A stretch of 64,000 nucleotides of DNA from a virus. The position numbers and the translations under genes are program-made. The notes below the pieces were generated by a model, which saw nothing but the letters and a program-made list of their open reading frames with translations, searched no databases and had not been told where the DNA came from. Position 1 is the first letter of the stretch; each line of letters starts with the position of its first letter. This document shows positions 26 through 63,670 of this stretch, piece after piece. The DNA lies in IMG/VR virus record IMGVR_UViG_3300045988_161046, positions 32,001 to 96,000 of that record, one strand, 5' to 3'.

Positions 26-60
26 GACCAGCGATAGAATCGCTGGGAACGGAGACGCAA
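26..60 (+). repeat. GAACGG-hairpin repeat copy 1 (stem CCAGCGAT/ATCGCTGG, 3-nt loop, then GAACGGAG)
   Basis: Read directly; hairpin 28-46; lies about 30 nt 3' of the minus-strand primase-helicase stop. Confidence 0.9.
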
Positions 61-73
61 AGGGGTTAAGGTT

Positions 74-94
74 CTTTTTACCATTTTACCTTTA
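74..94 (-). repeat. A-rich GGTAAAA(A)G junction repeat
   Basis: Minus strand reads TAAAGGTAAAATGGTAAAAAG starting at the stop codon of 92..3775. Confidence 0.7.
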
Positions 95-3000
95 AAAAGG
101 CAGGGTATCTTTATCTATTTCCTCTACCGTGGCTTCTGCGGTACTGCCATTCTGAGCATTCTGGGCGGCTACAAATCTGCCCTGCTTACGCTTCTGATAG
201 GCATTCCAGCGTTCTTCTTCTTCGGTTGTGAGCTGTACGATATGACCTTCATCATCACGATATGGTAATGGGTCTGGATTTTCTACAAACTCCTTGGCTA
301 TACGCTTCAGTTCCTTGTAGTCGGTCGGTATCGTATCCTTGCCAGGCCGATAGAAGAAGAACACATGCTTAGAGGTTTGAATGTAACGGATGAACTTCGG
401 TTCTATAGTGTTATCATTCTCCCACTCCCTACCTACGAAGTACTCCTGCGTTACCCATGCCTTCATCTTGAAGCAGTTGCGTTGCTTGTCGCTCACGTTC
501 TCGAAGAGATGTTCAGGGTTGCACTTGATATTCGCCGATTCACAATACTTATGAATTTTCTTCTTGAAGGTGGCTCGGCTATACTCCTTGCTTTTGCCCT
601 CACTGGCATCAGCCCAGTCACGGATAAACTCATTGAACATTTCATCGGCACAAATCGGAACACCGTAAACTTCTTCCCTAGAGAAGAAGAACTCGAAGTA
701 GCGCACGCAACTCTCCGTAATCTCCGAAATCATATTACGTCTTCGCAGGTTCAACTGAGGAGCCTTGCTCACTACGTGATAGCGCATCATAAACTGCACG
801 GCTAGAGCGGTGATGTAGATAGCCTGATTTCTTGCTATATCAGGTAATTTTTCGGGGTCTGGATTGAAACCCTTCAGAATGTCACCAGGTGATCTTGCCA
901 TCTTGCGCTTCAACGTATTTTCTCGTGCGAAGCGGTTAGAGAAGGCTATCTGCGGAAAACGTCCTGCCGTAGAATCTACTCCACCATCATAAGGAAAGTT
1001 GGATGATATGATATGCAGAGGCGAATCCTTTAGACTGAGCGTTTTTATATCCGCTCCCTTACACTCCAACGTAACACCAGTGGTTGCCATCACGTAGAAA
1101 TAGTCCATCGGAAAAGATTTCGGGCGGTCCTCCCAGTGTATCGCTCGATACATGCCAGGGTTATGCTGTATCTCGCCCAGACTGAAACGGGCATCGGCAG
1201 TGGTGATGAATCGCTTCATATCGATGTTCAGTACATTGACTGCCGAACCTACAAACACACGCACCACCATGGATTTACCCGAACCACCCGAAGCCTGCTT
1301 CTCGTCTTCAATCTGATCTTCCAGCAGATAAGGGATGCTCTGACTATCGGTACCCGAGAAATCTCTGTAACATACCCTACCTATACCGGAAACCATATTC
1401 ACGAAATGGGCATTGATGATTGACTTGTCTTCTTCCGATAGCTCATGCTTGCTTCTGTCGGCTTCCATCTCCTCCTGCCAAAGCACATTTGAGCAACCGC
1501 GCAGAATACGGAGCATAGGCCACAATTCTCTATCTTTCTTACCTCGCCAGTCAACATCCCACCTGTAAACGGTACCCCACTCTCGCAGGTCGTTTTTCAT
1601 CTGACTGATTTCAAAGATGCTGAATACTGGCGAACCGTCCTCATTCTTCTGCGCTTCCTTCTGCGCTATCTCGTTTTCCCTACGGGTATATTCATCACTT
1701 TGCTTGATGATGAACGGCGGGTCGAAATGACGCATAGTAAAGTCGTATGGCTTTCTGGCAGTGGCAGGGATAAAAAAGTTGCACTGGTCGTAACTGATAG
1801 GAGTGATATACTCCGGTGTTATCTTCAATGCCACGTTGCGGAAATAGAAATATTCTACGTTCTCGCTGTAACCTTCCGTAAAATCGATGACGATACTCTG
1901 CAATCCTCCGGCAGATTTTTCTGAGAAATTCTTGTCTATCAGATTGGCGCAATCGCTCATCAACTTCTGTTCCTGCTCGTTATGTCTCCAACTCTGTTCG
2001 CAAAACTCCAAGAGTTTTTCCTTTGTTGCCTGTATGATGCTCTTTCCGTCGATGTATTCGACAAAGCATCGGTCGAGGTGGATAAACTGACCTACGAGGT
2101 CATTGCTTTCCGGGTCGATTTTGCGGTAATATCCGTGACTCGTCATAAAAAGCCACACCTTAGTAGGCGAAATCTTACAGGTGCAAGGTTTTTGCTTGCC
2201 ACTGCGGGGGTCTCTCGGATATTCTATATCGAAGGGGTCGGTGTTCTTGGCTCCCCGAAGCTTGGAGAATAATGGCAGACGAATATCATGGTCGAACCGG
2301 AAATTGTCTTCATCAGACATACGATACGTGAGCATGTAATCTCTTACGCTCCTCGGTGTGCAACCATAGAGCCATTGCCAGCGCTGGTTATAGCGCACAC
2401 GGAAAGACTCAGGCAGCATGGCATAACAAATATCACTGAATTTGGTGGCGATGGCACCGCAGTTGCGCTGCGATGTAATATCATTTGGATAGATCATAAT
2501 AACCCTTTCGGCAAATCGCTTCATCTTTTGATATTGCACACCGCTGAAGTCCAGTTTTTCCTGCCTCCACTCACCTCTTTCTATATACCAGAAATAGCCT
2601 CTGCCAATAGAAAAGGCTACGTGGTACCAGCTATTCTTTTCAAAGAACTTGTCGCCAGCCTTATCCTTTCGTAAGGATTGCATGGCGTAATAGACGCTCA
2701 ATGCGTCTTCGGGTGTTCGGCAGAAAACGATGTTCTGAGCCTTAATGTCACCTACTTCTATAGGTTTCTTTTCAGGATGAAAAGTGCCTTTCGGTTCTCC
2801 ATCCTTGGTTTCGTTCTCTACCCATATTTCTTTTTCCTCTGTATAGACCTCATCAGGCTGATATTTCTTGATAGCAGCATAAACAGCGGTATTCTCAGCC
2901 GTTCTGTTTTCGGCTGCATGAACAAACACCGGGTCTCCCATGAGCCATTTGCTCACCTTCCTCACGCTATGCTCCTCACAGGTAGAGAAGACGATCGGGT

Positions 3001-6240: not shown

Positions 6241-6930
6241 ATGAAGTACTTTTATAATTACAGCTTCCTCGACAAGTGGATGGAAGCAAATAGGAAAATC
6301 ACCAATAGAGAAATTATGAAGGCTATGGGTACCACGAGCAATGCGTGCCTGGATAGCTGGATAAGAATGAAGTCTCCACTGCCTACCATCTCCCTGCTGC
6401 GCTTCTGCAATGCGTTTCATGTGCCGCTGTCGGCTTTTATTGTAGATGCGGATAAAGACCAACAAGGCAGTGAAGGATGCTGCGGTGCGGGGTATGTATG
6501 CCCTGGTATAGATGACCAGTTTGAGCCGGATGGGGGATATATAGATAATGATGAGAAGCGCAAACAGGGGACGAGGGCGCTGCGCAATCCCCTCGATGTG
6601 GAGAGGATGGAGTCGGTGGTACCTGGGTGGACCAGCGTTGGAAACGCTGGGAACGGAGGCGCAAAGGGACACAAGACAAGAGAAGAGGATAAGGAGGCTG
6701 CTGCTGCACCTATGAATGCTGCTGCGCCTACCCCGATGGCAGAAAAAGCTGCAAACGCAGAACCGGACATCAGCCTAAAGACCCTTAACCGCATGCTCGA
6801 TATTATTGCTGAACAGCAGAAACAGATAGGCGATCAGCAAAAGCTCATCAGCGAACTCACCCACCGTCTGGAATCTCAGCAGCCTAGCTACAACATGGTA
6901 GCAGAAGAGATACATCGTAACGAGGAATAA
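6241..6930 (+). CDS. HTH (XRE/Cro-like) DNA-binding protein
   Basis: 'ITNREIMKAMGTTSNACLDSWIRMKSPLPTISLLRFCNAFHVPLSAFI' helix-turn-helix pattern; a rare plus-strand gene; carries an in-frame hairpin-repeat copy. Confidence 0.5.
   Translation: MKYFYNYSFLDKWMEANRKITNREIMKAMGTTSNACLDSWIRMKSPLPTISLLRFCNAFHVPLSAFIVDADKDQQGSEGCCGAGYVCPGIDDQFEPDGGYIDNDEKRKQGTRALRNPLDVERMESVVPGWTSVGNAGNGGAKGHKTREEDKEAAAAPMNAAAPTPMAEKAANAEPDISLKTLNRMLDIIAEQQKQIGDQQKLISELTHRLESQQPSYNMVAEEIHRNEE
6630..6662 (+). repeat. GAACGG-hairpin repeat copy 2 (inside ORF 6241..6930)
   Basis: CCAGCGTT-GGA-AACGCTGG + GAACGGAGGCG; the stem carries a compensated A>T / T>A pair. Confidence 0.85.
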
Positions 6931-6937
6931 ATGAAAA

Positions 6938-10797: not shown

Positions 10798-11670
10798 CTA
10801 CTTCGGCATACTTGCCAATATCTCCTTCGTAAAGTTCTCATAGTCTTGCCCTACTCTACTGTAAGGCGAATAAGAAAATATATCCTGATTGATAGCCTGC
10901 GCTTCCACCATCTTCGTATCACGACGAGTATACGAGTCGAACATGTAGTCATCAAACTTATTGCCCAGATACTCCTTAAACTGCTTTGTGGCTCTCGTCT
11001 GATCATTACTCATTACCATAAACAGACCACGAATATCAATATCAGGGTTCAAGTCTTCTCGCGTTTCCTGTACCGCATTCAGAATTTCGGCAATACCTTT
11101 TGTTGCCAACATTTCAAGCTGGATAGGTATCACTACACCCGATGCAACCGATAGGGCATTATGCGTGAGAAGTGACAAAGCTGGTGGGCAGTCAATCAAT
11201 ACATAGTCGAAAGCCTCCAGGATAGAAGATACTCCCTCATTTATCAGTTCATCACCCCGAACTTCGGTCAAAGGCTTGCCGAATAACTTAAACAAAGCCT
11301 TGCGTGGTACCGGCATCTGATTGAGGAATGGTTCGATATTGATAAGGCGATAAGATGCTGGAGCAAGATAGATACCTTCCCTTACCTGGTAAACAGGCAA
11401 GCGGGATTGCTGTATCATCGCATCGTACATGGTAGGCTGCCCCATATTCTCTGCCTCACTCCATCCAAAGAGGAAGGAAAGGCTCGACTGCGGATCGAGG
11501 TCGATGAGCAAGATACGAGGCTTGCGCTCCTTGCCGTTTTCACCCTTGCCAAAGTAACCCTTGCCATAACGACGAAGACCAGTTGCTAAACTCTGTACGG
11601 TTGTTGTCTTACCAACTCCTCCCTTGTGATTTACGAAGGCGAGGATTTCTTTTAATCTTGTTTCTGCCAT
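10798..11670 (-). CDS. parA: ParA/Soj-family partition ATPase
   Basis: Deviant Walker A 'NHKGGVGKTTT'; 'LLIDLDPQ'; Walker B 'YVLIDCPP'. Confidence 0.85.
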   Translation of the reverse strand: MAETRLKEILAFVNHKGGVGKTTTVQSLATGLRRYGKGYFGKGENGKERKPRILLIDLDPQSSLSFLFGWSEAENMGQPTMYDAMIQQSRLPVYQVREGIYLAPASYRLINIEPFLNQMPVPRKALFKLFGKPLTEVRGDELINEGVSSILEAFDYVLIDCPPALSLLTHNALSVASGVVIPIQLEMLATKGIAEILNAVQETREDLNPDIDIRGLFMVMSNDQTRATKQFKEYLGNKFDDYMFDSYTRRDTKMVEAQAINQDIFSYSPYSRVGQDYENFTKEILASMPK

Positions 11671-12195: not shown

Positions 12196-12343
12196 GTGTT
12201 GAATGTTGAGTGTTAAATGTTGAATTTGGCTAGCGCCCTTGAGCCTGGTGGGGGACCAGCGATAGAATCGCTGGGGACGGGGGCGATAGGAAGAAACGCA
12301 ACCCCGATAGACTAATTCAACATTCAACACTCAACATTGAAAT
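12196..12343. repeat. low-complexity palindrome (GTTGAATGTTGAGTG... arms) enclosing hairpin-repeat copy 3
   Basis: Left arm 12196-12226 is near-complementary to right arm 12314-12343. Confidence 0.8.
12254..12285 (+). repeat. GAACGG-hairpin repeat copy 3
   Basis: CCAGCGATAGAATCGCTGG at 12256-12274, followed by GGACGGGGGCG. Confidence 0.9.
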
Positions 12344-14271: not shown

Positions 14272-14369
14272 GTTTCTTAGTTTTAAAATTGTTCTTTATA
14301 TATATCTAAGTAACGCAAGGGTTTCCGGAATTATTATATACCCTCACGTATTTTTTATTAAAATCTGCT

Positions 14370-14464
14370 CAAGCAGCACGCCCTGAAAAGGCAGCAGCTC
14401 CTAGCCCAGGGCAGCGCCCTGGGTAATCATAAGCGCGCCCCTTTCGCCCTGTAAGGGCAAAAGC
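14370..14464 (+). repeat. about 95-bp REP/MITE-like element, copy A (three nested hairpins)
   Basis: Near-identical to the reverse complement of 25904-25997; includes CCCAGGG-CAGCG-CCCTGGG. Confidence 0.85.
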
Positions 14465-16155
14465 TTTTTCTCGTTTCCAGGTGGTGGCATAGGCTGCGCA
14501 GCCACACCCACCAGATGGTGGATTTTTCTTGCGTCTATGCCCTTATCTCGCCCAGAAGGTGTAGTTGTAGGCGACGATACAAGATAGCCGCATACAGACT
14601 TAAAATCTCTGGTGTACGATGGTGATGCAAGCAACTCGGCAATATTCATCTTTACGATAGCCGCAGGAACGGAAGCATAAGGGTGTTTTATTTCTTTCTC
14701 TTCTTCCTCCTTATCCTGTGCCAAATCTGCATGCTCCTTCGCCTTCAATGCATCCTTGAACATTTTATCCAGCTTCACGCCCTTGTAGGCGAAGAAAGCG
14801 CAGCCACGATAACTGTTAGCCTTATTCCGTCTATCATCAGGCATGAACTCCTTGCAGAAACCGGAAAGGGTGTAAACCTTGCCCTGATATACCACCTTGT
14901 TATTGTCTATCGTGATAACCCTCTGCCCACCATGGATAAAAGTAATGATGTCGCCAGGCTCGATACCGATTTTATCAAAAGCAAACTTGCGGCTATCATC
15001 TACAGACTTCTTTTTCTTCTCTGAAGATAATGCAGCTTTCTCTTCTGCCGCAGGAGCAGTGATTTCGCAGGTCTTCTGTAATAGCTTAACACCTTTGCCT
15101 GGTTCCCCCGCATCATATACGCCATCAGCCACCTTTTCGCCGATATATGAATCACCATCCTTGCGAGGGCAGAGCAGATAAACGTTTCCGTTCTCACTCT
15201 CAGCCATCTTCAGAGTCTTCTCATTGATACCCAGATAGAGAATATCCAACTGAGGGATAGAGAGAAGATGCTCTGTGCCGAAACTAAGGGCAAAGCTATG
15301 TTTCAATACTTCATCGGTGGCAAAGGTGGCTACGTTCTCGCCCATCTTTACCGTGATAACCTTCTCGCCCTTCTTTCCGGAAAGAGAAACATATTCCTCT
15401 CCAGATACAGAATAGATCATCTTGCGGATAGCATCCCAGCTGCCGCCGATACGGACGCAATATCCGTCGAAGATGTTGCCGAAGCAGGATGCCCAGTCTA
15501 CGAACCGACAAGGAGAAGGTTCATAAGAAGTCATGCCATCAAACTCTATTACGGTAGTCTCTTCACGATTATCCAGTTTCACGGCCGCCAGTTCGTACAC
15601 TTCACCCGGCTTCATCTTTGCGCACATCTTCTTCCAGGTCTTCGCATTGATGAGCATTTCGCGGGTATCCCCCGATTTCTGGGTGATGGTAACAGGCATA
15701 GCCAGCAGCTTATGGCTATCAGTAGCCACCAGGCGGTTTCTCTCTGCATCTATAAATATACTGATTATTGCCTCCATATCATGCTTTTTATAGACGAAAT
15801 CGCAAAGTTCTGCCATCTCCTTGGTAGCCTGAAAACATACGCAGCCACGTTCCTTCTCGTTCTCTTCCTGATAAGTAAACATGCGCGCATTCTTGCCAAT
15901 GCCGGCAAGACCCTCGAACTTAGTAACAAGACGGAAGATATACGCAGCAGCAAACTCGCAGCGGAAGCTGCCTACCTCTATCTGGAATGACTGATCTTTA
16001 TCTGCATCACCCCAATAAAAAATCTTACCCATGTTCTTTGCTATCTCGCTGGCACGGAAACAACCGTGGTCGTTTCTTACCATCTTCTGCCAAATCATTT
16101 CGGCTATCTCATACAGTTTGTTGAGGATAGCCATATTCAGTTCCTTATTTGTCAT
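14401..16155 (-). CDS. sliding-clamp (DnaN)-like domain protein with extra N- and C-terminal regions
   Basis: 'NRLVATDSHKLLAMPV' and 'CRFVDWASCF' sit where DnaN has ATDGHRLA and FPDY; the last ~20 codons are supplied by REP copy A. Confidence 0.4.
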   Translation of the reverse strand: MTNKELNMAILNKLYEIAEMIWQKMVRNDHGCFRASEIAKNMGKIFYWGDADKDQSFQIEVGSFRCEFAAAYIFRLVTKFEGLAGIGKNARMFTYQEENEKERGCVCFQATKEMAELCDFVYKKHDMEAIISIFIDAERNRLVATDSHKLLAMPVTITQKSGDTREMLINAKTWKKMCAKMKPGEVYELAAVKLDNREETTVIEFDGMTSYEPSPCRFVDWASCFGNIFDGYCVRIGGSWDAIRKMIYSVSGEEYVSLSGKKGEKVITVKMGENVATFATDEVLKHSFALSFGTEHLLSIPQLDILYLGINEKTLKMAESENGNVYLLCPRKDGDSYIGEKVADGVYDAGEPGKGVKLLQKTCEITAPAAEEKAALSSEKKKKSVDDSRKFAFDKIGIEPGDIITFIHGGQRVITIDNNKVVYQGKVYTLSGFCKEFMPDDRRNKANSYRGCAFFAYKGVKLDKMFKDALKAKEHADLAQDKEEEEKEIKHPYASVPAAIVKMNIAELLASPSYTRDFKSVCGYLVSSPTTTPSGRDKGIDARKIHHLVGVAAQPMPPPGNEKKLLPLQGERGALMITQGAALG

Positions 16156-27306: not shown

Positions 27307-27377
27307 CTTTTTCCAAGAAAATTCCATTTTATAAGTAATTTTTCGCCAAAAAACTTGCGTAAATCAATATTTTGTTA

Positions 27378-27385
27378 TACTTTTG
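27378..27385 (+). promoter_or_regulatory. -7 box TACTTTTG (rightward, repressor gene)
   Basis: About 32 nt upstream of the ATG at 27417. Confidence 0.45.
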
Positions 27386-27416
27386 CATCCGAACAATAAT
27401 ATATCAGATAAAGATT

Positions 27417-28082
27417 ATGAAGAAACTGGATATAAAAAGAGCCTTGCGTGAACATCACATGACGCAGGTTGAACTTTGCAAGAGAACCGGATTGCTTACT
27501 CAGAACATGAGTCCGATCATAAACGGCAATCCTACCATCTCTAAACTCTTCCAAGTAGCCGAAGGCATCGGCTGCGACATCACCGACCTCTTCTATCCCG
27601 ACCCTGCGGAAGAAGCAGAGGAGAGAGACAAGGCACTCGAAAACGCAAAGAATAGCAAGATGCCGCTGGAACTTATTCTGCGTGACCTGACAAGAAGAGC
27701 CTATCCTAGCATCACGAAAGAGGAAATGGAGGAATGGATGGATGTCATCAGAAATAAGAATATGGTTCCTTGGTTTGATATAAATCCAAGCCAAATGGGT
27801 CTGCAGAATGCGATGGATAAGCTAAGACAATTCGAAGAGGCTAGAAAGAAGCATGAGGGCGAAACTCTGAACGAAACGCTGCGGGGCGATTTGCCGGAAG
27901 GTATCATCAGCAGAGATGTGAAGTTTGTGCAGCAGGGAGCAGGGAGCGAGCCATCCTATCAGGTTCACGAAAACGGACTGGAATCAGAAAACCAGCAGCA
28001 AATAATTCAGACTTCCACCTTCTGCCCTCACTGCGGCAAGAAAGTAAGGGTAGGAGTGGTATTATTAAATGTTGAATGTTGA
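27417..28082 (+). CDS. XRE/CI-like HTH repressor candidate
   Basis: 'MTQVELCKRTGLLTQNMSPIINGNPTISKLFQVAEGIGCDITDLF'; C-terminal 'CPHCGKK'; divergent from the leftward operon. Confidence 0.6.
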   Translation: MKKLDIKRALREHHMTQVELCKRTGLLTQNMSPIINGNPTISKLFQVAEGIGCDITDLFYPDPAEEAEERDKALENAKNSKMPLELILRDLTRRAYPSITKEEMEEWMDVIRNKNMVPWFDINPSQMGLQNAMDKLRQFEEARKKHEGETLNETLRGDLPEGIISRDVKFVQQGAGSEPSYQVHENGLESENQQQIIQTSTFCPHCGKKVRVGVVLLNVEC

Positions 28083-28974: not shown

Positions 28975-29135
28975 AGGTAAAAAAGTAAAAAGGTAAAAAG
29001 GTAAAAAGAGCCTAGCGGGAGATAGGGACTCCTGCTAGGCTCTTTTCTTTTAGGACCAGCGATAGAATCGCTGGGGACGGAGGCAAGGGGGTAAGGTTCT
29101 TTTTACCTTTTTACTTTTTTACCTTTTTACCTTTA
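28972..29135. repeat. large inverted pair of A-rich GGTAAAAAG repeats enclosing a terminator hairpin and hairpin-repeat copy 4
   Basis: 28972-29008 faces 29099-29135; inner hairpin GAGCCTAGC...GCTAGGCTC at 29009-29042. Confidence 0.8.
29054..29084 (+). repeat. GAACGG-hairpin repeat copy 4
   Basis: Hairpin 29056-29074, followed by GGACGGAGGC. Confidence 0.9.
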
Positions 29136-29141
29136 ATAGGG

Positions 29142-40382: not shown

Positions 40383-40415
40383 TTTTATTGTTTGGATTTT
40401 TATTTATTTATAAGG

Positions 40416-40452
40416 CAAAGATAAAGGGTTTCGATTTTTTAGTTGGGACAAA
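40416..40452 (-). promoter_or_regulatory. N25-class promoter-like module TTTGTCCC-N21-TATCTTTG
   Basis: Minus strand TTTGTCCCAACTAAAAAATCGAAACCCTTTATCTTTG. Confidence 0.55.
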
Positions 40453-40455
40453 AAA

Positions 40456-40486
40456 CCCAGCGATGGAATCGCTGGGAACGGAGGCG
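40456..40486 (+). repeat. GAACGG-hairpin repeat copy 5
   Basis: CCCAGCGAT-GGA-ATCGCTGGG; on the minus strand it is followed by T6 (terminator-like). Confidence 0.9.
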
Positions 40487-41594: not shown

Positions 41595-41695
41595 GGGTAA
41601 AAAGGTAAAAGAGTAAAAAGGTAAAAAGAACCTTAACCGCTCTTTTGCCTTTTACTATTTTTTACCTTTTTACCTTTTTACTTTTTTACTTTTAA
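41595..41695. repeat. inverted pair of A-rich GGTAAAAAG repeats
   Basis: 41595-41628 faces 41648-41695; the right arm encodes the ACP C-terminal 'KVKK*'. Confidence 0.8.
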
Positions 41696-41926
41696 AATCA
41701 CAAGATTGACTACATCAGAAACGAGTTTGCAATCTTTCGCCTCTTCCGGAGTAATCTTGATGTGGAACATCATTTCCACCTGCTGGATCATATCGAGAAA
41801 ATCAATAGACTCAAGTTCTACCTCGTCACGAAGATTAGAGTGCTCTGTTACCTCGTGTTTTACCCATTCAGTTTTCACGCTGTTCACGATGGTAATAATG
41901 CGAGATGTTATTTCTTCTTTTTTCAT
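41678..41926 (-). CDS. acyl carrier protein
   Basis: 82 aa, acidic; 'ELESIDFLDMIQQVEMMF' matches the ACP DSL-helix pattern, with Ser as the phosphopantetheine site. Confidence 0.7.
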   Translation of the reverse strand: MKKEEITSRIITIVNSVKTEWVKHEVTEHSNLRDEVELESIDFLDMIQQVEMMFHIKITPEEAKDCKLVSDVVNLVILKVKK

Positions 41927-41928
41927 AA

Positions 41929-43131
41929 CTATACTTTTGAAATAATAAATGAGGAGTTTGTACCGCCAAAGCCGAAGGCATTACAGAGAATATGGTGAGG
42001 GGAGTACCACTTAGGGCGCATTACCAGGTTAAGATGAGGGAAAGCATTCTCATCGGTGGTGGCTGCATGGAACAGACGGCCATAAGCGAACATCGCTACG
42101 GCTTGCACGGCTTGAGATACGCCCGCCATCCAACACTCGTGACCCGTCATCCCTTTTGTAGCTACTACGTTCGGACAGATAGGGAAAATTCTCTCTATTG
42201 CCTTTGCCTCGGCTTCATCGCCCATCGGTGTACCCGTAGCATGAGCAAGTACTACGTCTATCATACCTTCGTCCAATCCTGCGTCCTCGATAGCATTCAG
42301 CATCGACACTTCTTCCTGATAGCTATCAGGGGTAGTGATGGCCTTGCCGTTTGAAGAGAAACCATAACCGGAAAGGGAAGCGAAGGAAGGCACCTTCTCT
42401 TCTTTCAATCGAAGACTATCCGATGGTTCGAGGATGATGCAGGCTGCACCACCAGATGGGGCGAGTCCGTTTCTATTCTTGCCAAACGGCTGCACCTTAT
42501 CGGGTGAGAAGACACGCAGCGCATCGAATGCCTCCATGCTATAAAGTGATGTCGTTTCCTGCGTACCAACAACGATAACCATCTCGGTCTGTTTGCTATC
42601 AAGAAGCATCTTGGCAAGACCGATTGCATGGCCACCTCCTGCACAGGCCGCACTTACGGTAAGTGATAGGCCATGAATACCGAGGATAGTAGCCAGGTTC
42701 ATACTGATAGCGGAATTAAGTGTTTTGAACAGAGTTCCTGTCTCCAGGTATCTATTATTGAGATCATAATCTACATGATGAACTACCTCTCTTGTTTCGT
42801 AACACTCAGAGTCGTTACTAACGATGACAGAAACATTATGGTTCTGAAGGAAATCATCGCTTATCTTTGCTTTCCTCAAAGCTTCAAAAACGGCATCAAG
42901 TGCATAAAAACCATGTAAGGGCATACTATTGAGTTGTGTCCGAGTTAACTTTTTCGAGTAATCTCCTTTCCAACCAGTCACACGACCGCACAACTCCGAA
43001 AGATAATGCTCTCTGATTTTGTCGTGATATAGTCCGCATTTGCCCTTGTAGAGGTTCATGGCTACTTCTCTTGTATTTCTACCCATGGCAGAAATAATAC
43101 CGGTTCCGGTAATCAATATCTTTTTATCCAT
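41929..43131 (-). CDS. beta-ketoacyl-ACP synthase, FabB/FabF (Cys-His-His) type
   Basis: 'SAACAGGGHAIG', 'AHATGTPMGD', 'KGMTGHECWMAG', 'NAFGFGGTNSSFII'. Confidence 0.85.
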   Translation of the reverse strand: MDKKILITGTGIISAMGRNTREVAMNLYKGKCGLYHDKIREHYLSELCGRVTGWKGDYSKKLTRTQLNSMPLHGFYALDAVFEALRKAKISDDFLQNHNVSVIVSNDSECYETREVVHHVDYDLNNRYLETGTLFKTLNSAISMNLATILGIHGLSLTVSAACAGGGHAIGLAKMLLDSKQTEMVIVVGTQETTSLYSMEAFDALRVFSPDKVQPFGKNRNGLAPSGGAACIILEPSDSLRLKEEKVPSFASLSGYGFSSNGKAITTPDSYQEEVSMLNAIEDAGLDEGMIDVVLAHATGTPMGDEAEAKAIERIFPICPNVVATKGMTGHECWMAGVSQAVQAVAMFAYGRLFHAATTDENAFPHLNLVMRPKWYSPHHILCNAFGFGGTNSSFIISKV

Positions 43132-46698: not shown

Positions 46699-46723
46699 TG
46701 CTTTTTTCTTTTTATTTATATGG

Positions 46724-46760
46724 CAAAGATAGGGGGTTTTTTCTTATTAGGGGGGACATA
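46724..46760 (-). promoter_or_regulatory. N25-class promoter-like module (TATGTCCC variant)-N21-TATCTTTG
   Basis: Minus strand TATGTCCCCCCTAATAAGAAAAAACCCCCTATCTTTG. Confidence 0.5.
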
Positions 46761-46769
46761 AAAAAAGAA

Positions 46770-46800
46770 CCCAGCGATTGAATCGCTGGGAACGGGGGCG
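46770..46800 (+). repeat. GAACGG-hairpin repeat copy 6
   Basis: CCCAGCGAT-TGA-ATCGCTGGG; followed by a T-run on the minus strand. Confidence 0.9.
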
Positions 46801-49260: not shown

Positions 49261-51075
49261 AGAGACCTCTTGTTTCGCCACTCCGGTCTTCGAGTTATCG
49301 AGGGTAGTCAATACCTCCCGGTCAACCTGCCATACCAGGTGCTCGTCCCAATCGTTGAAGCGGCTCAAGACTTCCAGCGGGCGTATCATCAACTGCTGCA
49401 ATGGGGCAAACTGAATCTGCTTGACCAGGAAACGCTCTCTCAGGTCGGTACCGCCAGAGGACGCTGTATCACCAGGGGTGTTGCCGATGAGCTTTGCATC
49501 GAGACCCATGGCAAAGAAGATGATGCTGCTTATTTCCTGTAACTCGGTCTTGTCGGCATTCGCCTGATCATTTGCCTTGGTTTCGATTTCCACGATTTCC
49601 CAAGCCTTGTGCTCCTTTCCGTCGCTTCCCGTAAAGGCAGAAGAGATGAGTGCCTGACCTGCATTATCAGGGTTGGCGAGCCATGTATTGATGGAAGTGA
49701 AGATTTCATTCTGAATCTCACCCTGGGTTTTCTTTTTCTTCTCACCCTGCTGCTGATAGAGCCTGCTGATATAGTCCTGGTGGATATAGATGACACGACC
49801 GATGATGTTGCTGTTGCGCTTTCGGGTGAGGCGGTCATCTACGATGGTGAAGGCATATTCAAAGATGCTGCCGGCAAAGATGGAGTGCCAAAGGGCATCG
49901 GCATAATACGGACCACCGAAATCACGTGGCGACATGATGAAGCGGGTAGGGCGTTTCTTGCGGCTTACCTGCTTCTGACGTGCCTCACGTATCTTGCGCT
50001 GCAAATCCTTTACGGCTGATGTGGTAGGGAGATAAGGGATAGCCGCTATCTTGCGGTCTTCCTCCTTCTGCACACCGACGTATTGGGTTGGGTCGAGCCA
50101 CTGGTTGCTGACGTAGGCATAGTTGATGCGGTAGTTCTCGTCCATTCGTTCCAGTCGGGTGGTGAAAATACTGCGATGCTTCAGACCGATTACCTTCGGG
50201 GTCCATTGAGCGGTAGGAACAGCCTTGCCGTTTTCGTCGAGGGAACGCTGATTAAGCTGAAGTTCTACAAAGCATTGTGACATCAGAGCCATATCTCCTG
50301 CCAGGTCGAGGAAGGTCTGCATCAGGTCGTTATTCTCTATGAAATCACGAAGCTGGGTATTGGTTTCTTCCCATTTGTGGAGGGCTTCTTTCAGAGATTT
50401 CATCTCCTCGCTTTCCTCTTCATCGGAGGATAAGACCTGCGATGAAATCGCAGGGAACGGAGTCTCCTCTTGCTGAGACTGCCCGTTCTGGCTCTGCTGC
50501 TCGCTCTGGCGCTTGGCTTCGGCGGCTGCCTCTTCCTTGGCTTTGAGGTCGGCTATCTGACCACGGAGCAGAACTCCTGCACTCTCGTAGGGGATATATT
50601 TCTCTGTGATGTTTCCGCCTACATACTGGGTATAGTGATACTTTGGGGCGGGACCGCGACCTACCAGTATCTTCTTGATGTAATCAACTCCTGCTGCCGT
50701 AAAGGGCGACATACGGGAGAGCATCCAGATAAGGTTTGGCAGTCGGTTGGACATACCCCATTCCATAAAGCCTAAGCCTTCGGTACCTACGTCTTTCGGT
50801 TTACCCATGTTCTCGCCGCCACTTGATGCAAAGATTGTGGAGACTTGCTGACGTGCTGCAGAACCGCTTGCGTCGCCACCGCTTGCCGACATACCGGCTG
50901 TGGTCAGGAGCATGCTGTGAACGTAGTCGTTCCAGGAGAAGACTTTACCGCCACCATTCTTAAGCGGCGTAAAGGCATCCGGGCGAACGGCTACATAGCC
51001 TGCATCTTTCAGTTCCTCACTACGCTGTTGGAGCTGCTGCAGGTTGGTTACTCTGTTTCTGTTTTTGCTTGCCAT
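49258..51075 (-). CDS. portal-like protein (low confidence)
   Basis: 605 aa; heads an operon behind an N25 module; the C-terminal third has a portal-like pattern (from memory); the acidic insert contains hairpin-repeat copy 12. Confidence 0.35.
   Translation of the reverse strand: MASKNRNRVTNLQQLQQRSEELKDAGYVAVRPDAFTPLKNGGGKVFSWNDYVHSMLLTTAGMSASGGDASGSAARQQVSTIFASSGGENMGKPKDVGTEGLGFMEWGMSNRLPNLIWMLSRMSPFTAAGVDYIKKILVGRGPAPKYHYTQYVGGNITEKYIPYESAGVLLRGQIADLKAKEEAAAEAKRQSEQQSQNGQSQQEETPFPAISSQVLSSDEEESEEMKSLKEALHKWEETNTQLRDFIENNDLMQTFLDLAGDMALMSQCFVELQLNQRSLDENGKAVPTAQWTPKVIGLKHRSIFTTRLERMDENYRINYAYVSNQWLDPTQYVGVQKEEDRKIAAIPYLPTTSAVKDLQRKIREARQKQVSRKKRPTRFIMSPRDFGGPYYADALWHSIFAGSIFEYAFTIVDDRLTRKRNSNIIGRVIYIHQDYISRLYQQQGEKKKKTQGEIQNEIFTSINTWLANPDNAGQALISSAFTGSDGKEHKAWEIVEIETKANDQANADKTELQEISSIIFFAMGLDAKLIGNTPGDTASSGGTDLRERFLVKQIQFAPLQQLMIRPLEVLSRFNDWDEHLVWQVDREVLTTLDNSKTGVAKQEVS
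50436..50464 (+). repeat. GAACGG-hairpin repeat copy 12 (inside ORF, diverged)
   Basis: CCTGCGAT-GAA-ATCGCAGG + GAACGGAG; compensated A>T / T>A in the stem. Confidence 0.75.
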
Positions 51076-51173
51076 TTTTTTTGCGTTTCTTTTTTTTATG
51101 TTATCCTGAATATGATTGAAAGAGAGAAGGGTGGCGATATACGCACACCCGCTTTATCTCCTTGTTTCTGAGT

Positions 51174-51211
51174 GTAAAGTTAGGGCTTTTTATGGTTTTG
51201 GTGGGGACAAA
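51174..51211 (-). promoter_or_regulatory. N25-class promoter-like module TTTGTCCC-N21-TAACTTTA
   Basis: Minus strand TTTGTCCCCACCAAAACCATAAAAAGCCCTAACTTTA. Confidence 0.45.
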
Positions 51212-51223
51212 GAGGGGAGGGGA

Positions 51224-51253
51224 CCAGCGATAGAATCGCTGGGAACGGAGGCT
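51224..51253 (+). repeat. GAACGG-hairpin repeat copy 7
   Basis: Hairpin 51224-51242. Confidence 0.9.
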
Positions 51254-53938: not shown

Positions 53939-55045
53939 TCATTTGTTCCTCCTCATCTTTTCCATTTCCTCATTCTCTTTCGACAACCTTTCGAGATGTT
54001 CGAGAACGAGGGAATAAGACTGAGTATTGACCTGATCTTCCGTTAGGCCGACATACTTCTGCATCGTAGCGGTGGTGACGGTGTAGATCTCCATCGGGGT
54101 TTGCGGCTTGGTGTTGTTTGCCTTCTGTACCTTGAACACGTGAGGGTAGCGATGAGCTAGGGTGTGCATGATGCCCGTCCACCAGAAGAGGATGACCTGC
54201 CAGTTTGCCTCTGGGAAATTGACGAAATACTTTGCGTTCTCGGTGAACTGCTTTGACTCGTAATGAAAATCGTATTTCGTGATGCCTGTTGTCGGATCGA
54301 CGTACTGGGTGGTGGTGTTGAAGATGGTGGCAAGGAACATGTTTCTGGCGCTAGCTACGCTCTGAGCTTGCGTCTGAAGTTGCTCCTCGATGAACTTATC
54401 CATCTGCTTCATCTTTACCAGGTTATTGCTTAACTTGGTGTAGGTCTGCATCATATCGCTAGCAAAACGGTATTGCTGCCAGGAAAAGCCATCGAGGTCT
54501 GTACTCGGACCGCGGAAGGCTTTGGCACGACGATACCACTTGGCTTTCTGTCCGATGAGCGGATAGGGGAAGAGGGTGAGGAAATTGCCGCTGTCTGCAT
54601 CCAGCCAGTCGAGAAGACCTGCGCCCTGAGCGATATACTCAGGGGAGGTTTTATCCTTGGTCTTGGCTTTCGGAGAGAGCCAATAGTTGAGCTGCCAAAG
54701 ATAGAGGGGAAAGTGGCTGCCGGACTGCGGACCAGCGATAGAATCGCTGGGAACGGGGGCGCAGAGGGAGAGGAGCTTCTTCAGAAGGCTCTTCTTCTGC
54801 GGCTCTATGCTTACCAGGTAGTGCTGCTCATTGATAGGCATGCGAGGGTCGGGATAGGCATTGATGCCTATTCCGGCAAAAAGGAAGAAAACGGCTATCT
54901 TCACCTTCTGCATATCGAAGGGGTGATAGCGGTCTGCCTTGGCTATCTGCTCCAGCATGATGAGGGCAATCTGCTCCAGCTGGGTAGGGGTGCATTGGTT
55001 CCAGCCGCGGGGGATGGTGAGGTTTATCTGTTCTTGCATAATCAT
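53939..55045 (-). CDS. hypothetical protein (carries in-frame hairpin-repeat copy 8)
   Basis: 368-aa ORF. Confidence 0.5.
   Translation of the reverse strand: MIMQEQINLTIPRGWNQCTPTQLEQIALIMLEQIAKADRYHPFDMQKVKIAVFFLFAGIGINAYPDPRMPINEQHYLVSIEPQKKSLLKKLLSLCAPVPSDSIAGPQSGSHFPLYLWQLNYWLSPKAKTKDKTSPEYIAQGAGLLDWLDADSGNFLTLFPYPLIGQKAKWYRRAKAFRGPSTDLDGFSWQQYRFASDMMQTYTKLSNNLVKMKQMDKFIEEQLQTQAQSVASARNMFLATIFNTTTQYVDPTTGITKYDFHYESKQFTENAKYFVNFPEANWQVILFWWTGIMHTLAHRYPHVFKVQKANNTKPQTPMEIYTVTTATMQKYVGLTEDQVNTQSYSLVLEHLERLSKENEEMEKMRRNK
54730..54762 (+). repeat. GAACGG-hairpin repeat copy 8 (inside ORF)
   Basis: Consensus hairpin at 54732-54750, encoding 'APVPSDSIAGP'. Confidence 0.9.
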
Positions 55046-55052
55046 TTTTTTT

Positions 55053-55146
55053 AGTGTTGATTGTTGAGTGTTGAATGTTGAATTGCCTCACGGACTCGAT
55101 GGCGTATTCCTAATTCAACATTCAACACTCAACATTCAACACTCAA
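55053..55146. repeat. low-complexity palindrome (GTGTTGAATGTTGAATT / AATTCAACATTCAACAC arms)
   Basis: Arms 55053-55085 and 55111-55146, between the endolysin stop and the next start. Confidence 0.8.
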
Positions 55147-57959: not shown

Positions 57960-57989
57960 CCAGTGATGGAATCGCTGGGGACGGGGGCA
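57960..57989 (+). repeat. GAACGG-hairpin repeat copy 9
   Basis: CCAGTGAT-GGA-ATCGCTGG (one T.G pair on the plus strand); just 3' of the capsid gene stop. Confidence 0.85.
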
Positions 57990-57997
57990 GGAGAGGG

Positions 57998-59341: not shown

Positions 59342-60940
59342 CTAGAGGAGACCATTTTCTCTCTTGTACTCCTCGATAGCTTTCTTTGAACCTACTGGGT
59401 CGGCTGGATTCCAGGTTGGGTAGCCTGTCTTTGCGGTTTCTACCTTTGCGCCCTCACCGTTGTTCTGAGGTGCGGCACCCTGCGCTGGCTCCTCACCTGG
59501 GTTCTCGTTCAGCTCGGCAATCTGAGCGTCCTTGTCGGCGATGGTCTGCTGGGCAGTCGCGAGTGAAGCCTGGGCAGTCTTCAACTCCTCATCTGCCTTT
59601 GCCTTCTCCTCATCGGCCTTAGCCTTTGCCTCTTTCAGGTTCTTGATTTCCTCGTCCTTCTGGGCGATGGTTTCAGCGAGTGCGTCGTGCTTTGCCTGAA
59701 GGTCAGCAAGATTCTGCTCTGCTGTGGTGGCTTTCTGCTTGGCATCAGCCACAGCCTGCTCCTGCGATGCGAGATGAGCTTCGAGGGTATCGAGCAACGG
59801 GGCATTCATGAATGCGCCTTCCTCCTTTACCTCAATCTGCTGACCATCCTGCATACCGCAAGCGGCATTGATCTTTGAATAATTTGCCATATTGATTGAT
59901 TTTTGTGAAATAGTATGTTGATGATTTTCTTGTACAATAGATGCAGATGCCTGCTCCGGCTCGTTCTCTTCCGGTTCAGGCTTTTGGATAGAAGCCTCTC
60001 GATTGATAGGCTCGGCTGTGCCGTTGTAGAGAGCGAAGCAACGCTGAACGCACCCCATAAAGGTAGACTGGTCGTCCATAAGGATTCCCTTTACGTCTTC
60101 AGCATTGAATACCTTACCTTTCAGGTGAACATCCTCGATAGCGTTAGGACAGGCTTTCTTCACATCGGCTCTGAACTCCACGCCCAACTCGGAAAGCTCT
60201 TTGATAAGCTCCTTGTTGTCATTCTTGTTGGCGATGTCACGGTAAGCCTTATTCTTGTCGAAAGACTCTGGATCGTACTCCTCGTGATAAGTCTCATCGG
60301 TATATTTATCCTTTGAGCCATTAGCCAAAGTATAGAAGGCAGCCATCACGCCGATGCAACCAACCTGGTCTTTCGGATTCAAGTAATATCGCTCATCGCA
60401 AAGAGAAGCGAGATACATACCTGCACTGGCACACATTCCATCTACCAGGGCGATGACCTTCTGACCCTTGGAGTGGGCATAGTCGATAGCAAGTGCATAA
60501 TCGTTTTTAGCCCAAGCCGAACCGCCAGGAGTATTAATGATAAAAAGATGACCTCGGCAAAGCGGATGGTCAGCTGCACGCATCATCATATCGCGATGGT
60601 CGATAGAACCATAAGAGCAATATCCACCATTTCGAGTGATAGGACCATCTACGGTGAGAACCGAAACAAACGGGAAGTTCTGTGCCCGCTCATCCTCCTC
60701 CGGATAGTCGAGCTGATAGTTAGCTCTCACCTGCTTGCCATCCTCGGAAATCTGATATTCCTCCGGATAGTAGGTGTTGCCTTCAGCATCCTCCGCAGTG
60801 ACGAATCCACAAGTCCTTTCCGGTTTGGTAAACTCTGTGTGAGTATTTAGGTTCTGCTCAATCGATTTACGAATGCCATGCACGAAATCGGGGTTCACCA
60901 TCCACTTCTTCTCGGTCAGAATTTCATAAAGACCTTTCAT
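59342..60940 (-). CDS. prohead protease (S49/ClpP-like) fused to a coiled-coil scaffold
   Basis: 'FIINTPGGSAWAKND...ALVDGMCASAGMYLAS...VGCIG'; C-terminal 'ADLQAKHDALAETIAQKDEEIKNLKEAKAKADEEKAKADEELK'. Confidence 0.7.
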   Translation of the reverse strand: MKGLYEILTEKKWMVNPDFVHGIRKSIEQNLNTHTEFTKPERTCGFVTAEDAEGNTYYPEEYQISEDGKQVRANYQLDYPEEDERAQNFPFVSVLTVDGPITRNGGYCSYGSIDHRDMMMRAADHPLCRGHLFIINTPGGSAWAKNDYALAIDYAHSKGQKVIALVDGMCASAGMYLASLCDERYYLNPKDQVGCIGVMAAFYTLANGSKDKYTDETYHEEYDPESFDKNKAYRDIANKNDNKELIKELSELGVEFRADVKKACPNAIEDVHLKGKVFNAEDVKGILMDDQSTFMGCVQRCFALYNGTAEPINREASIQKPEPEENEPEQASASIVQENHQHTISQKSINMANYSKINAACGMQDGQQIEVKEEGAFMNAPLLDTLEAHLASQEQAVADAKQKATTAEQNLADLQAKHDALAETIAQKDEEIKNLKEAKAKADEEKAKADEELKTAQASLATAQQTIADKDAQIAELNENPGEEPAQGAAPQNNGEGAKVETAKTGYPTWNPADPVGSKKAIEEYKRENGLL

Positions 60941-61784: not shown

Positions 61785-62573
61785 TCATAGCCACTGCACT
61801 TCGTCGATGCGGTTAGGCTTGTCACGACTATCTTTATATTGCATATCCACACAGGAATAGCTCTTGAAGAAGCAATGCTCCGTGCGGAACCATCTGCCGA
61901 TGATTCGGCGCAATACGTCTTTCTCTTCCTCGCTGACTTCTATACCGTAGCGCATTAAATAACGCTCCAGCATGGCGTTATGGGAACGGGCGATAACCCT
62001 TCCTTTGGAGGTACAGAAGTCGAAGGTGGAGAGTGCCCATTCTACCAGACTGCGCTTGAAATCATTGTTCAATGAGACCGCCAGGGCCCGCATGCCGTTC
62101 GTATCGAGTGTAAAGGTAGGCTTTACCGGATAAACAGTATCGACAACTTCTACCTCGCTCGGCAAGCGGATGCAGAGATAATCATCGTGTGAACCCTTGC
62201 CATCGGTAAGGCGGCCATTGAGCTGCTGAACTTCCTGGAAGGTGAGCCAGCTTCCGACATCACGGCGCATCATTACCTTGCCTCCGGCAGGATGCCTACC
62301 CGTGAGCATATTGCACCATTGCTGCTGCGAGAAACAGCCGAGGTCAATACGGTTGCTTTTCGCAGGGGCGCTAATAAGCGAATTGCGCATGATGAACTGC
62401 TCGTGTGAGTAGTTGCTGAACACCACCGGCTCATCCTTTGCCAGGGTGAACTTAGGGTCGCGGTGCCGGAAAAACTGGCAGCGGGATGTGGGGAGACGGA
62501 GATAGATATTTGGCACCTTTTCTAATTTATAATTTATAGTTGATAGGGCAGGCTTGCTAAAAGAACCTAGCAA
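61785..62573 (-). CDS. hypothetical protein (start uncertain; the ORF N-terminus runs into repeat copy 10)
   Basis: 262-aa ORF; alternative Met at 62390. Confidence 0.45.
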   Translation of the reverse strand: MLGSFSKPALSTINYKLEKVPNIYLRLPTSRCQFFRHRDPKFTLAKDEPVVFSNYSHEQFIMRNSLISAPAKSNRIDLGCFSQQQWCNMLTGRHPAGGKVMMRRDVGSWLTFQEVQQLNGRLTDGKGSHDDYLCIRLPSEVEVVDTVYPVKPTFTLDTNGMRALAVSLNNDFKRSLVEWALSTFDFCTSKGRVIARSHNAMLERYLMRYGIEVSEEEKDVLRRIIGRWFRTEHCFFKSYSCVDMQYKDSRDKPNRIDEVQWL

Positions 62574-62596
62574 TGGAATTGCTGGGAACGGGGGCT
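62566..62596 (+). repeat. GAACGG-hairpin repeat copy 10
   Basis: CCTAGCAAT-GGA-ATTGCTGGG: one compensated pair and one T.G pair; flanked by TATAGTTGATAG / CTATCAACTAT arms. Confidence 0.85.
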
Positions 62597-62640
62597 AGAT
62601 AGCGCTAGCCTTCTATCAACTATTAATTGTTAACTGTTAA

Positions 62641-63615
62641 CTATTTCATTGCGATGCCTTTCTCCATGGCGTAATGGAGCATGATGGCATCGGTGATGTA
62701 GAGAAAATATTTCTGCATGCTGTTGCCTTCCTTCGGGCGTGGTACCAGCTTATCAAGCTTGGCAGTCTGGTCCTCGCTGAGATTAGCGATGAGTTTCATG
62801 CCGTCGATATAGCAGCCGCCGGATTCCGTCTTGGCGATGAAACTTTCGTTGAACTTCTTGTCTTCTCCGAAGAAGAGGTTGATGGCTTCCACCATCTGAT
62901 CCTGTGTGAAACCGGGAAGGGTAGGATGCAGCTTGCGGTACTTCTGCGAATAGGTCTTCATACGCTTATCCATATAGATATTGATGCTGTCGGCATACTC
63001 ATAGTAGAGGGCGTAATCTTTCGATTTCTCGTCTTTCTTACGGGCAAAATCGAAGAAACCGCTCAACTGACGGAGGCTTGCCATCACGCCGTCAAACTGC
63101 TGAAACTCACTGGCACCTTTGAAGATTTCCAGCATATCGCCCTTCACCTGGGTAAGCAGGTTTTCGAGCATTTCAGAGAGGAACGTTATCTTATCGAGAT
63201 TGGTATTCAGCTGGTCTACCTTCGCCTGTATGCCCGGACGGCTGTAGTCTACGTAGTAACGTATCAGATGGCCGAAGTTAAGGAAGTCGTAAGTTACCTC
63301 ACTATGCAGATTTACCTGTACTAGCAGGTCATAGATGGAATTTGCCAGTTTGCTATCCTTATCCTGGATAGCCTTAATGAGTGATAACATCTGAGGCGAA
63401 CCCTGCGGTATGCGGTTGGCAGCACGTACCAGTTCGTTTCGGTTGCGCACGGCATCGGCAAACTTCGGATCTGCGAAGAGCGTCTCCAGGGTTTTAACGT
63501 ATACATCAGCAGGCACATCCTTGAAGTTGAAGGTGTAGATGGTAGGGAGGTTTCTTATTTGCGCCTCACGCTTGGCCATCGCCTGCTGCTGGTGTTTCTT
63601 GTTTTTTGTTCCCAT
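62641..63615 (-). CDS. hypothetical protein
   Basis: 324-aa ORF. Confidence 0.5.
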   Translation of the reverse strand: MGTKNKKHQQQAMAKREAQIRNLPTIYTFNFKDVPADVYVKTLETLFADPKFADAVRNRNELVRAANRIPQGSPQMLSLIKAIQDKDSKLANSIYDLLVQVNLHSEVTYDFLNFGHLIRYYVDYSRPGIQAKVDQLNTNLDKITFLSEMLENLLTQVKGDMLEIFKGASEFQQFDGVMASLRQLSGFFDFARKKDEKSKDYALYYEYADSINIYMDKRMKTYSQKYRKLHPTLPGFTQDQMVEAINLFFGEDKKFNESFIAKTESGGCYIDGMKLIANLSEDQTAKLDKLVPRPKEGNSMQKYFLYITDAIMLHYAMEKGIAMK

Positions 63616-63641
63616 TGCTTTTTACTTTTTTTGCTTACGGA

Positions 63642-63670
63642 CCAGCGATAGAATCGCTGGGAACGGAAGC
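63642..63670 (+). repeat. GAACGG-hairpin repeat copy 11
   Basis: Consensus hairpin at 63642-63660. Confidence 0.9.

Follow-up and report, generated by a model that had tools for sequence, protein, structure and literature searches.

The stretch of DNA examined here, referred to as the window, comprises 64,000 nt of a viral record (IMG/VR record IMGVR_UViG_3300045988_161046, positions 32,001–96,000). It belongs to a phage, probably a temperate one, and nearly all long open reading frames (ORFs) of this 64-kb window lie on the minus strand. Twelve copies of a hairpin repeat, CCAGCGAT-NNN-ATCGCTGG followed by GRACGGRGGC, are scattered along it in a single orientation, and there are eight exact copies in the 64 kb. 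The minus-strand consensus is ..GCGCCYCCGTYC-CCAGCGAT-TCT-ATCGCTGG-TCC. The copies, numbered from the first base of the window, are as follows.

28..56, minus strand: copy 1; hairpin at 28–46, loop AGA on the plus strand, flank GAACGGAGAC
6632..6660, minus strand: copy 2; compensated stem variant CCAGCGTT/AACGCTGG (A>T with T>A)
12256..12284, minus strand: copy 3; 68 nt 3′ of a stop codon
28972..29139, minus strand: copy 4; composite unit with the hairpin at 29056–29074, between convergent genes
40456..40485, minus strand: copy 5; start at 40457, intrinsic-terminator form with GTTTTTTGT behind a 9-bp stem on the minus strand
46770..46799, minus strand: copy 6; start at 46771, 9-bp stem followed by GTTCTTTTTTT, the terminator form
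50436..50464, minus strand: copy 7; compensated stem variant CCTGCGAT/ATCGCAGG (A>T with T>A)
51224..51252, minus strand: copy 8; no U-run, 5′ of a promoter-like module (TAACTTTA)
54732..54760, minus strand: copy 9; inside a 368-aa minus-strand ORF (53939–55045), where it is read as ...APVPSDSIAGP...
57960..57988, minus strand: copy 10; one T.G on the plus strand, 19 nt from the preceding stop codon and 111 nt from the following start codon
62567..62595, minus strand: copy 11; stem CTAGCAAT/ATTGCTGG with one compensated pair (G>A with C>T) and one T.G
63642..63670, minus strand: copy 12; 57 nt past a stop codon and 26 nt before the next ATG

When two mismatches were allowed, CCAGCGATNNNATCGCTGG matched the window eleven times, always on the plus strand, and 100 dinucleotide shuffles gave no match; the twelfth copy lies at 62567–62585 (CTAGCAAT-GGA-ATTGCTGG). 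All twelve have GGRACGGRGGC as their 3′ flank, none with more than one mismatch. A sequence-only reading of the same DNA had described twelve hairpins of one polarity, including copy 2 in a plus-strand gene, and this was borne out; most of its coordinates were exact, while 62566, 40456 and 46770 were each one base off. The compensated double substitutions it saw at 6632, 50436 and 62567 are present, the only unpaired changes (57960 and 62567) are indeed T.G on the plus strand, and the placing of some copies inside larger low-complexity palindromes was confirmed for 12256 and 62567. Its nine copies 3′ of minus-strand stop codons were also recovered, at distances of 19–158 nt and not the 10–90 nt proposed. 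A suspected thirteenth copy at 14640–14672 is not a hairpin, since only the flank GGAACGGAAGC is present there, with no stem.

Copy 1 lies 45 nt 3′ of the stop codon of a minus-strand gene of 1227 aa, and is followed on the plus strand by a GGGGTTAAGGTTC-TTTTTACC stretch of the type found in host chromosomes (see below). A long TGTTGAA-type palindrome (arms at about 12196–12225 and 12315–12334) encloses copy 3 in its loop, and copy 11 lies within a larger palindrome (about 62536–62623) with a short U-run (GTTCTTTT). Copy 12 must be intercistronic, as the 26 nt before the next ATG leave no space for a promoter. Three copies (40457, 46771 and 51224) stand 5′ of promoter-like modules on the minus strand (40395–40455, 46700–46770 and 51150–51223), as the sequence-only reading had noticed. 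These modules have the form GTCCCC...AAAAA..CCCTATCTTTGCC.TATAAAT and contain the Bacteroidota −7 box TAnnTTTG. Copy 5 is 38 nt past a stop codon and directly 5′ of its module, copy 6 is 19 nt past a stop codon, and the modules adjoining these two contain TATCTTTG, which fits the −7 box.

Three further copies are located inside ORFs, in differing reading frames: 6632 in a plus-strand gene, and 50436 and 54732 in minus-strand genes. Copy 2 is found in a low-complexity linker of the gene at 6241–6930, and breaks the orientation rule for the mRNA of that gene, though it would have the usual sense in minus-strand read-through transcripts. Alignment to a 54%-identical homologue in L116 is ungapped at this point, so copy 2 does not represent a clean insertion. 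Copy 7 is in frame within an acidic, low-complexity stretch of a 605-aa minus-strand ORF; in six of seven relatives only 6 of its 8 pairs remain. Copy 9 is kept in all 15 aligned relatives, some with 1–3 mismatches. A peptide common to the coding copies was considered and rejected, because the two copies in minus-strand ORFs are read in different frames.

The predicted hairpin has a stem of 8–9 bp, a loop of 3 nt, and an energy of −12 to −16 kcal/mol. Covariation was assessed in 60 distinct sequences, a set enriched for stem variants (all non-consensus stems found, plus a sample of consensus ones). Five of the eight pairs changed on both sides, in 19 cells, a level reached by none of 500 shuffles, and pairing was kept in 96.9% of cells; sliding the pairing register abolished the signal. 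Among 336 dereplicated phage and host copies, 31 compensated pairs were found. The stem is under pairing constraint, and to this extent the sequence-only reading is supported. The loop (RGA on the plus strand, UCY in the transcript) and the CCGTYC flank are almost invariant. Wobble pairs had been taken to favour the plus strand, but in the 336-copy sample this preference vanishes (10 G.T on the motif strand versus 14 A.C, equivalent to G.U on the other strand), and wobble pairs therefore identify no strand.

The repeat is widespread. Among the matches listed, IMG/VR contigs of about 30–110 kb contain the exact 25-nt motif in more than 118 stretches, which include at least three sequence clusters unlike the window, one being a separate group of contigs of about 62 kb. 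It is also present in at least 120 bacterial-genome blocks, most of them titled Segatella copri or uncultured Prevotella, with a minority titled Lachnospiraceae, Mogibacterium, Planctomycetota or an unnamed 'bacterium'. Contigs of non-Prevotella metagenome-assembled genomes that carry it (seven assigned to Lachnospiraceae, one to Mogibacterium and one to Planctomycetota) are probably mis-binned S. copri or phage DNA, because in several of those examined, two Lachnospiraceae contigs among them, the flanking DNA is almost the same as that of S. copri loci. The complete chromosome of S. copri HDD04 has at least ten repeat loci spread over 0.33–3.85 Mb (blocks at 0.33, 0.61, 1.13, 1.78, 1.82, 1.94, 2.17, 2.74 and 3.85 Mb among the matches listed), and the repeat is found in many S. 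copri clades beside housekeeping genes. Chromosomal neighbours include terC, trpD/trpC, an rlmH-type SPOUT methyltransferase, a nucleoside phosphorylase, a phosphotransferase system (PTS) EIIC gene and kduI. Judged from these matches, the element is not phage-specific and forms a family of the Segatella copri species complex and its phages; the host of the present phage is Segatella (Prevotella) copri. The host chromosome, where the sequence-only reading had thought the repeat might recur, does carry dispersed copies. No paper containing the repeat sequence was found in the literature.

In the host, the repeat unit exceeds the phage core in length and has the arrangement GGGGA-hairpin-GAACGGGGGCGCAAAGGGGTTAAGGCTC-(TTTTTACC)n, and sometimes adjoins a bidirectional terminator. 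Copies 28 and 29056 of the window have this full host-type context. Copy 4 is a complete composite of the host type, consisting of a bidirectional terminator (AGAGCCTAGC...GCTAGGCTCTTTT), the repeat and a TTTTTACC array, and the segment 28972–29139 is 74–92% identical (mostly about 80–90%) to S. copri chromosomal units. Tandem TTTTTACC / GGTAAAAAG arrays adjoin the repeat at 57–110 and 29085–29140 of the window and at host loci (L119–L238), where they can flank the hairpin on both sides in the same orientation. Inverted pairs of the repeat, 40–90 nt apart, were seen at seven host loci; there are none in the phage window. At four other 'host' loci (L163, at about 1.129–1.132 Mb of HDD04, and L153, L178 and L182) the copies have the phage-type loop and flank and a TGTTGAA-type repeat, and probably mark an integrated mobile element or prophage; the copy at L163 adjoins a gene for a DnaG-type zinc-ribbon primase.

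Host density is about one exact copy per 190 kb, or some 20 per genome, by a rough estimate (zero-truncated Poisson fit to 8-kb blocks) that agrees with the ten or more HDD04 blocks. The repeat is about 20-fold denser in phage. An AGA loop is found in 46% of phage and 10% of host copies, and the base following GRACGG is A in 39% and 8%, respectively. These differing frequencies point to a phage-biased subfamily that was amplified or homogenised inside phage lineages, and not repeatedly captured from the host.

The host copies bear on a possible role as a protein-binding site in duplex DNA, either a stoperator-like operator for a phage repressor or a site for a host nucleoid protein or gyrase. 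An 8-3-8 dyad symmetry is typical for sites bound by dimers, and many single-orientation copies along a phage genome recall the stoperators of cluster A mycobacteriophages. The window also contains a CI-like helix-turn-helix (HTH) gene (27372–28082), and copy 2 lies inside a possible HTH regulator gene (6241–6930, recognised by eye and lacking a Pfam domain). Nevertheless, this explanation is improbable: the same site stands beside host housekeeping genes in many S. copri clades, the double substitutions preserve pairing yet alter both half-sites, and a phage repressor would leave the 3′-end bias of host copies unexplained. The proposals of a phage nut-like antiterminator site or a phage-protein operator, both raised by the sequence-only reading, are likewise not supported, given the identical motif beside trpD/trpC, rlmH, terC and PTS genes in S. 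copri.

Position and orientation relative to genes are strongly biased. At viral-contig loci, 103 copies lay between tandem genes that run antisense to the motif and one between tandem genes of the same sense. Phage genomes sampled at several places had all copies of each genome in one orientation, which was maintained across about 100 kb, even beside plus-strand genes. Of 132 dereplicated host copies, 52 were flanked by tandem genes running antisense to the motif and 12 by tandem genes running in its sense; convergent genes flanked 26 copies and divergent genes 4. These contexts come from naive ORF calls, at least one of which is wrong. Given the positions and the antisense bias, the element is read in transcripts as a CCGUYC-hairpin at 3′ ends or between cistrons.

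Host transcription was examined using published differential RNA-seq and RNA-seq data for HDD04 (bioRxiv 10.1101/2024.04.05.588293), which are usable at host copies because the coordinates coincide with those of NZ_CP152484.1. That study makes no mention of the repeats, and reports the promoter consensus TAnnTTT.. in more than 70% of primary transcription start sites (TSSs). For the host copy at 335,022, between trpD and trpC, the sole TSS lies at 333,688, followed by none on either strand until 341,621; read counts were 355/355/327 for trpD, 390/386/443 for trpC and 480/406/397 for trpF. For the copy at 612,465, between rlmH (P4D_00520) and P4D_00519, there is no TSS between the genes and read density is equal. 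Both copies lack a U-run, and across both the read density is equal or higher, with no downstream TSS. At these two host copies, therefore, the plain element (without a U-run) does not serve as a promoter and is not effective as a terminator; it is part of the transcript, as a hairpin between cistrons.

The same data argue against a DNA-hairpin promoter for a phage-encoded RNA polymerase. The short stem, 3-nt loop and single orientation upstream of genes resemble the early promoters of phage N4. Such a promoter is highly improbable here, as no TSS follows the two host copies in the HDD04 map, copy 29056 points into convergent plus-strand genes, copies occur directly after stop codons (some with U-runs), and no polymerase was identified among the ORFs scanned.

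Read-through is also compatible with a sequence-specific RNA tag, in which the CCGUYC box and UCY-loop hairpin would be recognised by an RNA-binding protein, an RNase or an antiterminator, similar to nut sites or the RNase III sites of T7. In favour of such a tag, the stem covaries but the loop and 5′ flank hardly vary, and the element has a constant sense in transcripts. We think this unlikely. No candidate factor was found, there is no Rfam family match (at gathering score the window was without a match, and around copy 29056 there were only sub-threshold chance matches), and the conservation of loop and flank may just reflect recent copying.

Copies 40457 and 46771 differ from the plain form. 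They were the top two terminator-like sites on the minus strand between 40 and 60 kb, and the minus-strand T-runs noticed earlier behind copies 5 and 6 are present. A U-run of the kind found in intrinsic terminators follows these two of the twelve copies and, weakly, 62567. U-rich tails are present in 7–15% of phage copies and 1–2% of host copies. From their sequence, 40457, 46771 and weakly 62567 look like true intrinsic terminators preceding Bacteroidota-type promoters. The terminator or 3′-end role suggested by the sequence-only reading thus fits the two or three copies with U-runs; the others do not look like terminators.

Comparison of related phages revealed turnover of the repeat and of other hairpins, including a second family, represented in the window by the following feature.

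55048..55146, minus strand: not a copy of the repeat; a long palindrome of TGTTGAATGTTGAG repeats

The 46771 slot has three states among phages whose flanking genes are about 90% identical. In the first, it holds the repeat hairpin together with a T-run and a promoter module; in the second, a long TGTTGAATGTTGAG palindrome and a T-run accompany the same promoter; in the third it is empty, and the next ATG directly follows the stop codon. At this slot the promoter module and terminator hairpin are gained or lost jointly as one cassette of about 125 nt. The 62567 slot holds other hairpins or is empty in relatives, and at 63642 the copy is missing in one relative and replaced by another hairpin in a second. 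The inserted unit at the 62567 and 63642 slots is about 38 nt, and no target-site duplication was visible at the indel boundaries of these two slots. TGTTGAA palindromes (55048–55146, and also around 12256) are about 85% identical to S. copri chromosomal loci and, in related phages, fill intergenic positions that the main repeat also uses. A third host-shared unit (14368–14467), with GC-rich hairpins (GCCCTTACAGGGC, CCCAGGGCGCTGCCCTGGG) at the 3′ end of a 584-aa gene, has 85–89% identity to several S. copri loci, giving at least three host-shared hairpin families in the window.

Such turnover raises the possibility of a selfish, non-autonomous element of the repetitive extragenic palindromic (REP) or miniature inverted-repeat transposable element (MITE) type, copied into the lagging-strand template by a single-strand-specific enzyme of the host or phage, resembling HUH enzymes or REP-associated tyrosine transposases (RAYTs). 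Uniform orientation would then follow the direction of replication, and the hairpin would be the recognition structure of the enzyme and not an RNA signal. Besides presence/absence and cassette swapping among close relatives, the in-frame copies within three ORFs, the inverted pairs in the host, which resemble bacterial interspersed mosaic elements (BIMEs), the one-sided conserved flank with its conserved loop, the phage-biased subfamily, the roughly 20-fold phage enrichment and the single orientation over about 100 kb, including beside plus-strand genes, would all fit. Other observations do not: there is no Y1/HUH transposase among the window ORFs and none annotated in the examined part of the HDD04 gene table, the indel boundaries show no target-site duplication, the copy in the 6241–6930 gene is ungapped against its homologue, and in the host the orientation tracks local genes (52 versus 12). 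This explanation is less probable than the one favoured below. The miniature mobile element listed by the sequence-only reading is compatible with the behaviour of the cassettes in relatives.

We favour, with a probability of roughly 55%, the view that the hairpins are a REP-like interspersed palindrome of about 35–40 nt that acts as punctuation between genes on phage mRNAs. Since nearly every phage gene is on the minus strand, the element would be transcribed as 5′-GCCYCCGUYC-[CCAGCGAU-UCY-AUCGCUGG]-UCC-3′ within long polycistronic mRNAs, and should fold at gene boundaries into a stable triloop hairpin of 8–9 bp. Copies with a U-run (40457, 46771 and weakly 62567) would serve as intrinsic terminators, closing one transcription unit just ahead of a Bacteroidota-type promoter. 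The majority form, without a U-run, would be transcribed through, and may act as a barrier to 3′-to-5′ decay or as an intercistronic stability element. Enterobacterial REPs are barriers to 3′-to-5′ mRNA decay, and by analogy a decay barrier is most likely the effect of the plain form. Copies are gained, lost and swapped with other hairpin cassettes, and the phage-biased subfamily would have been amplified in the phage lineage. Identity with a host repeat, position, orientation, pairing constraint, cassette turnover and the read-through of two host copies are direct observations, while the decay barrier and the mode of spread are inferences. The element is most likely not a phage-specific control signal, and it is not a new kind of phage regulatory system. 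The sequence-only reading had set its proposal against a generic REP, abundant in hosts and without positional bias; the repeat is abundant in hosts, but that description applies only in part, because a clear bias in position and orientation is present and phage density is about 20-fold higher.

Several points weigh against simple punctuation. Compensatory changes in a palindrome could also arise by template-switch repair, without selection. The near-absolute orientation, the near-invariant UCY loop and the invariant 5′ flank CCGUYC are unexplained by a plain hairpin whose stem is a perfect palindrome. Three copies are in coding sequence. The higher density in phage is not predicted by a punctuation model. 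The two host examples show only that termination and initiation do not occur there; an effect on mRNA stability, drawn by analogy, lies beyond them. RAYT-like single-strand transposition or a specific RNA-binding factor would explain the orientation, the invariant loop and flank and the phage enrichment. Tentatively, and as a less probable reading, one may envisage a strand-specific system that is active and has phage genomes, not the chromosome, as its chief reservoir. It could be a REP-like unit copied on replicating single-stranded phage DNA by a putative HUH-type enzyme, which if true would be the first REP/RAYT-like system described in Bacteroidota; or an RNA tag (CCGUYC box and UCY-loop hairpin) recognised by an RNA-binding protein or RNase of the host, which phages would have amplified some 20-fold, plugging their long one-directional transcripts into a host pathway of mRNA stability or processing.

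S. copri is among the most prevalent human gut bacteria, and little is known of gene regulation in this species and its phages. The intergenic regions of these phages are built from interchangeable hairpin cassettes common to the host. The repeat also provides a host marker, assigning more than 100 uncultivated viral contigs (30–110 kb) to hosts of the S. copri complex, and the element is a candidate part for S. copri genetics, either as a read-through hairpin or in its terminator variant.

Other genes recognised in the window include:

6241–6930, plus strand: second HTH-like gene; N-terminal part HTH-like by eye, without a Pfam match
10798–11670: ParA-like ATPase gene
27372–28082, plus strand: gene for the CI-like HTH protein
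32616–34064, minus strand: reverse transcriptase gene
34544–35845, minus strand: tail-protein gene, target of a diversity-generating retroelement (DGR)
41678–41926: acyl-carrier-protein-like gene, adjoining the next
41929–43131, minus strand: beta-ketoacyl synthase gene
59342–60940: head-maturation protease gene

A C5 methyltransferase is also present among the window ORFs. The ParA-like ATPase and the two plus-strand HTH or HTH-like genes suggest that the phage is temperate and may live in a plasmid-like state. The parA start is separated from copy 12256 by some 585 nt without coding sequence. The ketoacyl synthase and acyl carrier protein (41678–43131) are an unusual auxiliary pair in a phage. 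One ORF (position not fixed) matched the Rv2179c-like 3′-5′ exoribonuclease domain (E = 3e-24), which could matter if the hairpins are exonuclease barriers. The DGR is complete (32616–35845, minus strand), with a reverse transcriptase, a 116-nt template repeat (TR, 34273–34388) and a variable repeat (VR, 34586–34701) at the 3′ end of the tail-protein gene; all 16 TR/VR mismatches fall on template adenines. The hairpins were considered as the target-recognition hairpin of the DGR, and this was rejected because no copy lies near the VR. Nucleotide and protein searches of GenBank phages gave no close relative of the window, a tRNA scan of the window gave no match, and PDB sequence searches with its two largest unknown proteins gave none. 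The DGR and the Bacteroidota host suggested Quimbyviridae as the phage family; membership was not established, and the paper on that family is silent on repeats.

Known systems share some features with the repeat. Intrinsic terminators resemble 40457, 46771 and weakly 62567, which have a 9-bp GC-rich stem and a U-run before promoters and swap with hairpin-plus-T-run cassettes. The majority form differs: nine or ten of the twelve copies have no U-run, and two host copies without one are read through with downstream expression kept. Ordinary intrinsic terminators also share no single sequence, unlike the copies of the repeat. Stoperators of cluster A phages are alike in having many copies of a short motif in short intergenic regions, in one orientation to transcription, over the whole phage genome. 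However, they are asymmetric, phage-specific duplex sites of 13–14 bp bound by a repressor, whereas the present element is a dyad with compensatory changes, a covarying hairpin that also stands beside host housekeeping genes.

The RNase III sites of T7 are likewise conserved, uniformly oriented hairpins that separate cistrons in long phage transcripts, and the mRNA upstream of them keeps a 3′ hairpin that protects it. They are longer and irregular and not common to the host genome. Rickettsia palindromic elements and Neisseria Correia elements are short palindromes found between genes and in frame within ORFs, with strain-variable presence, as here; the present unit is far shorter and showed neither terminal inverted repeats nor target-site duplication, and one coding copy is not a clean insertion.

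The closest resemblance is to the REPs and BIMEs of Enterobacteria and Pseudomonas. These are mobilised by RAYT transposases, and none was seen in the window ORFs or the examined part of the HDD04 gene table. The present repeat differs further in its Bacteroidota host, its perfect 8-bp triloop stem, its roughly 20-fold higher density in phage and its near-absolute orientation there. In other respects it matches them: it is a short, stable, GC-rich stem-loop with a conserved one-sided flank, dispersed in tens of mostly extragenic chromosomal copies that lie after stop codons or between cistrons and rarely between divergent genes, it is transcribed with the upstream gene, its stem is kept by compensatory changes, and it occurs in BIME-like inverted pairs.

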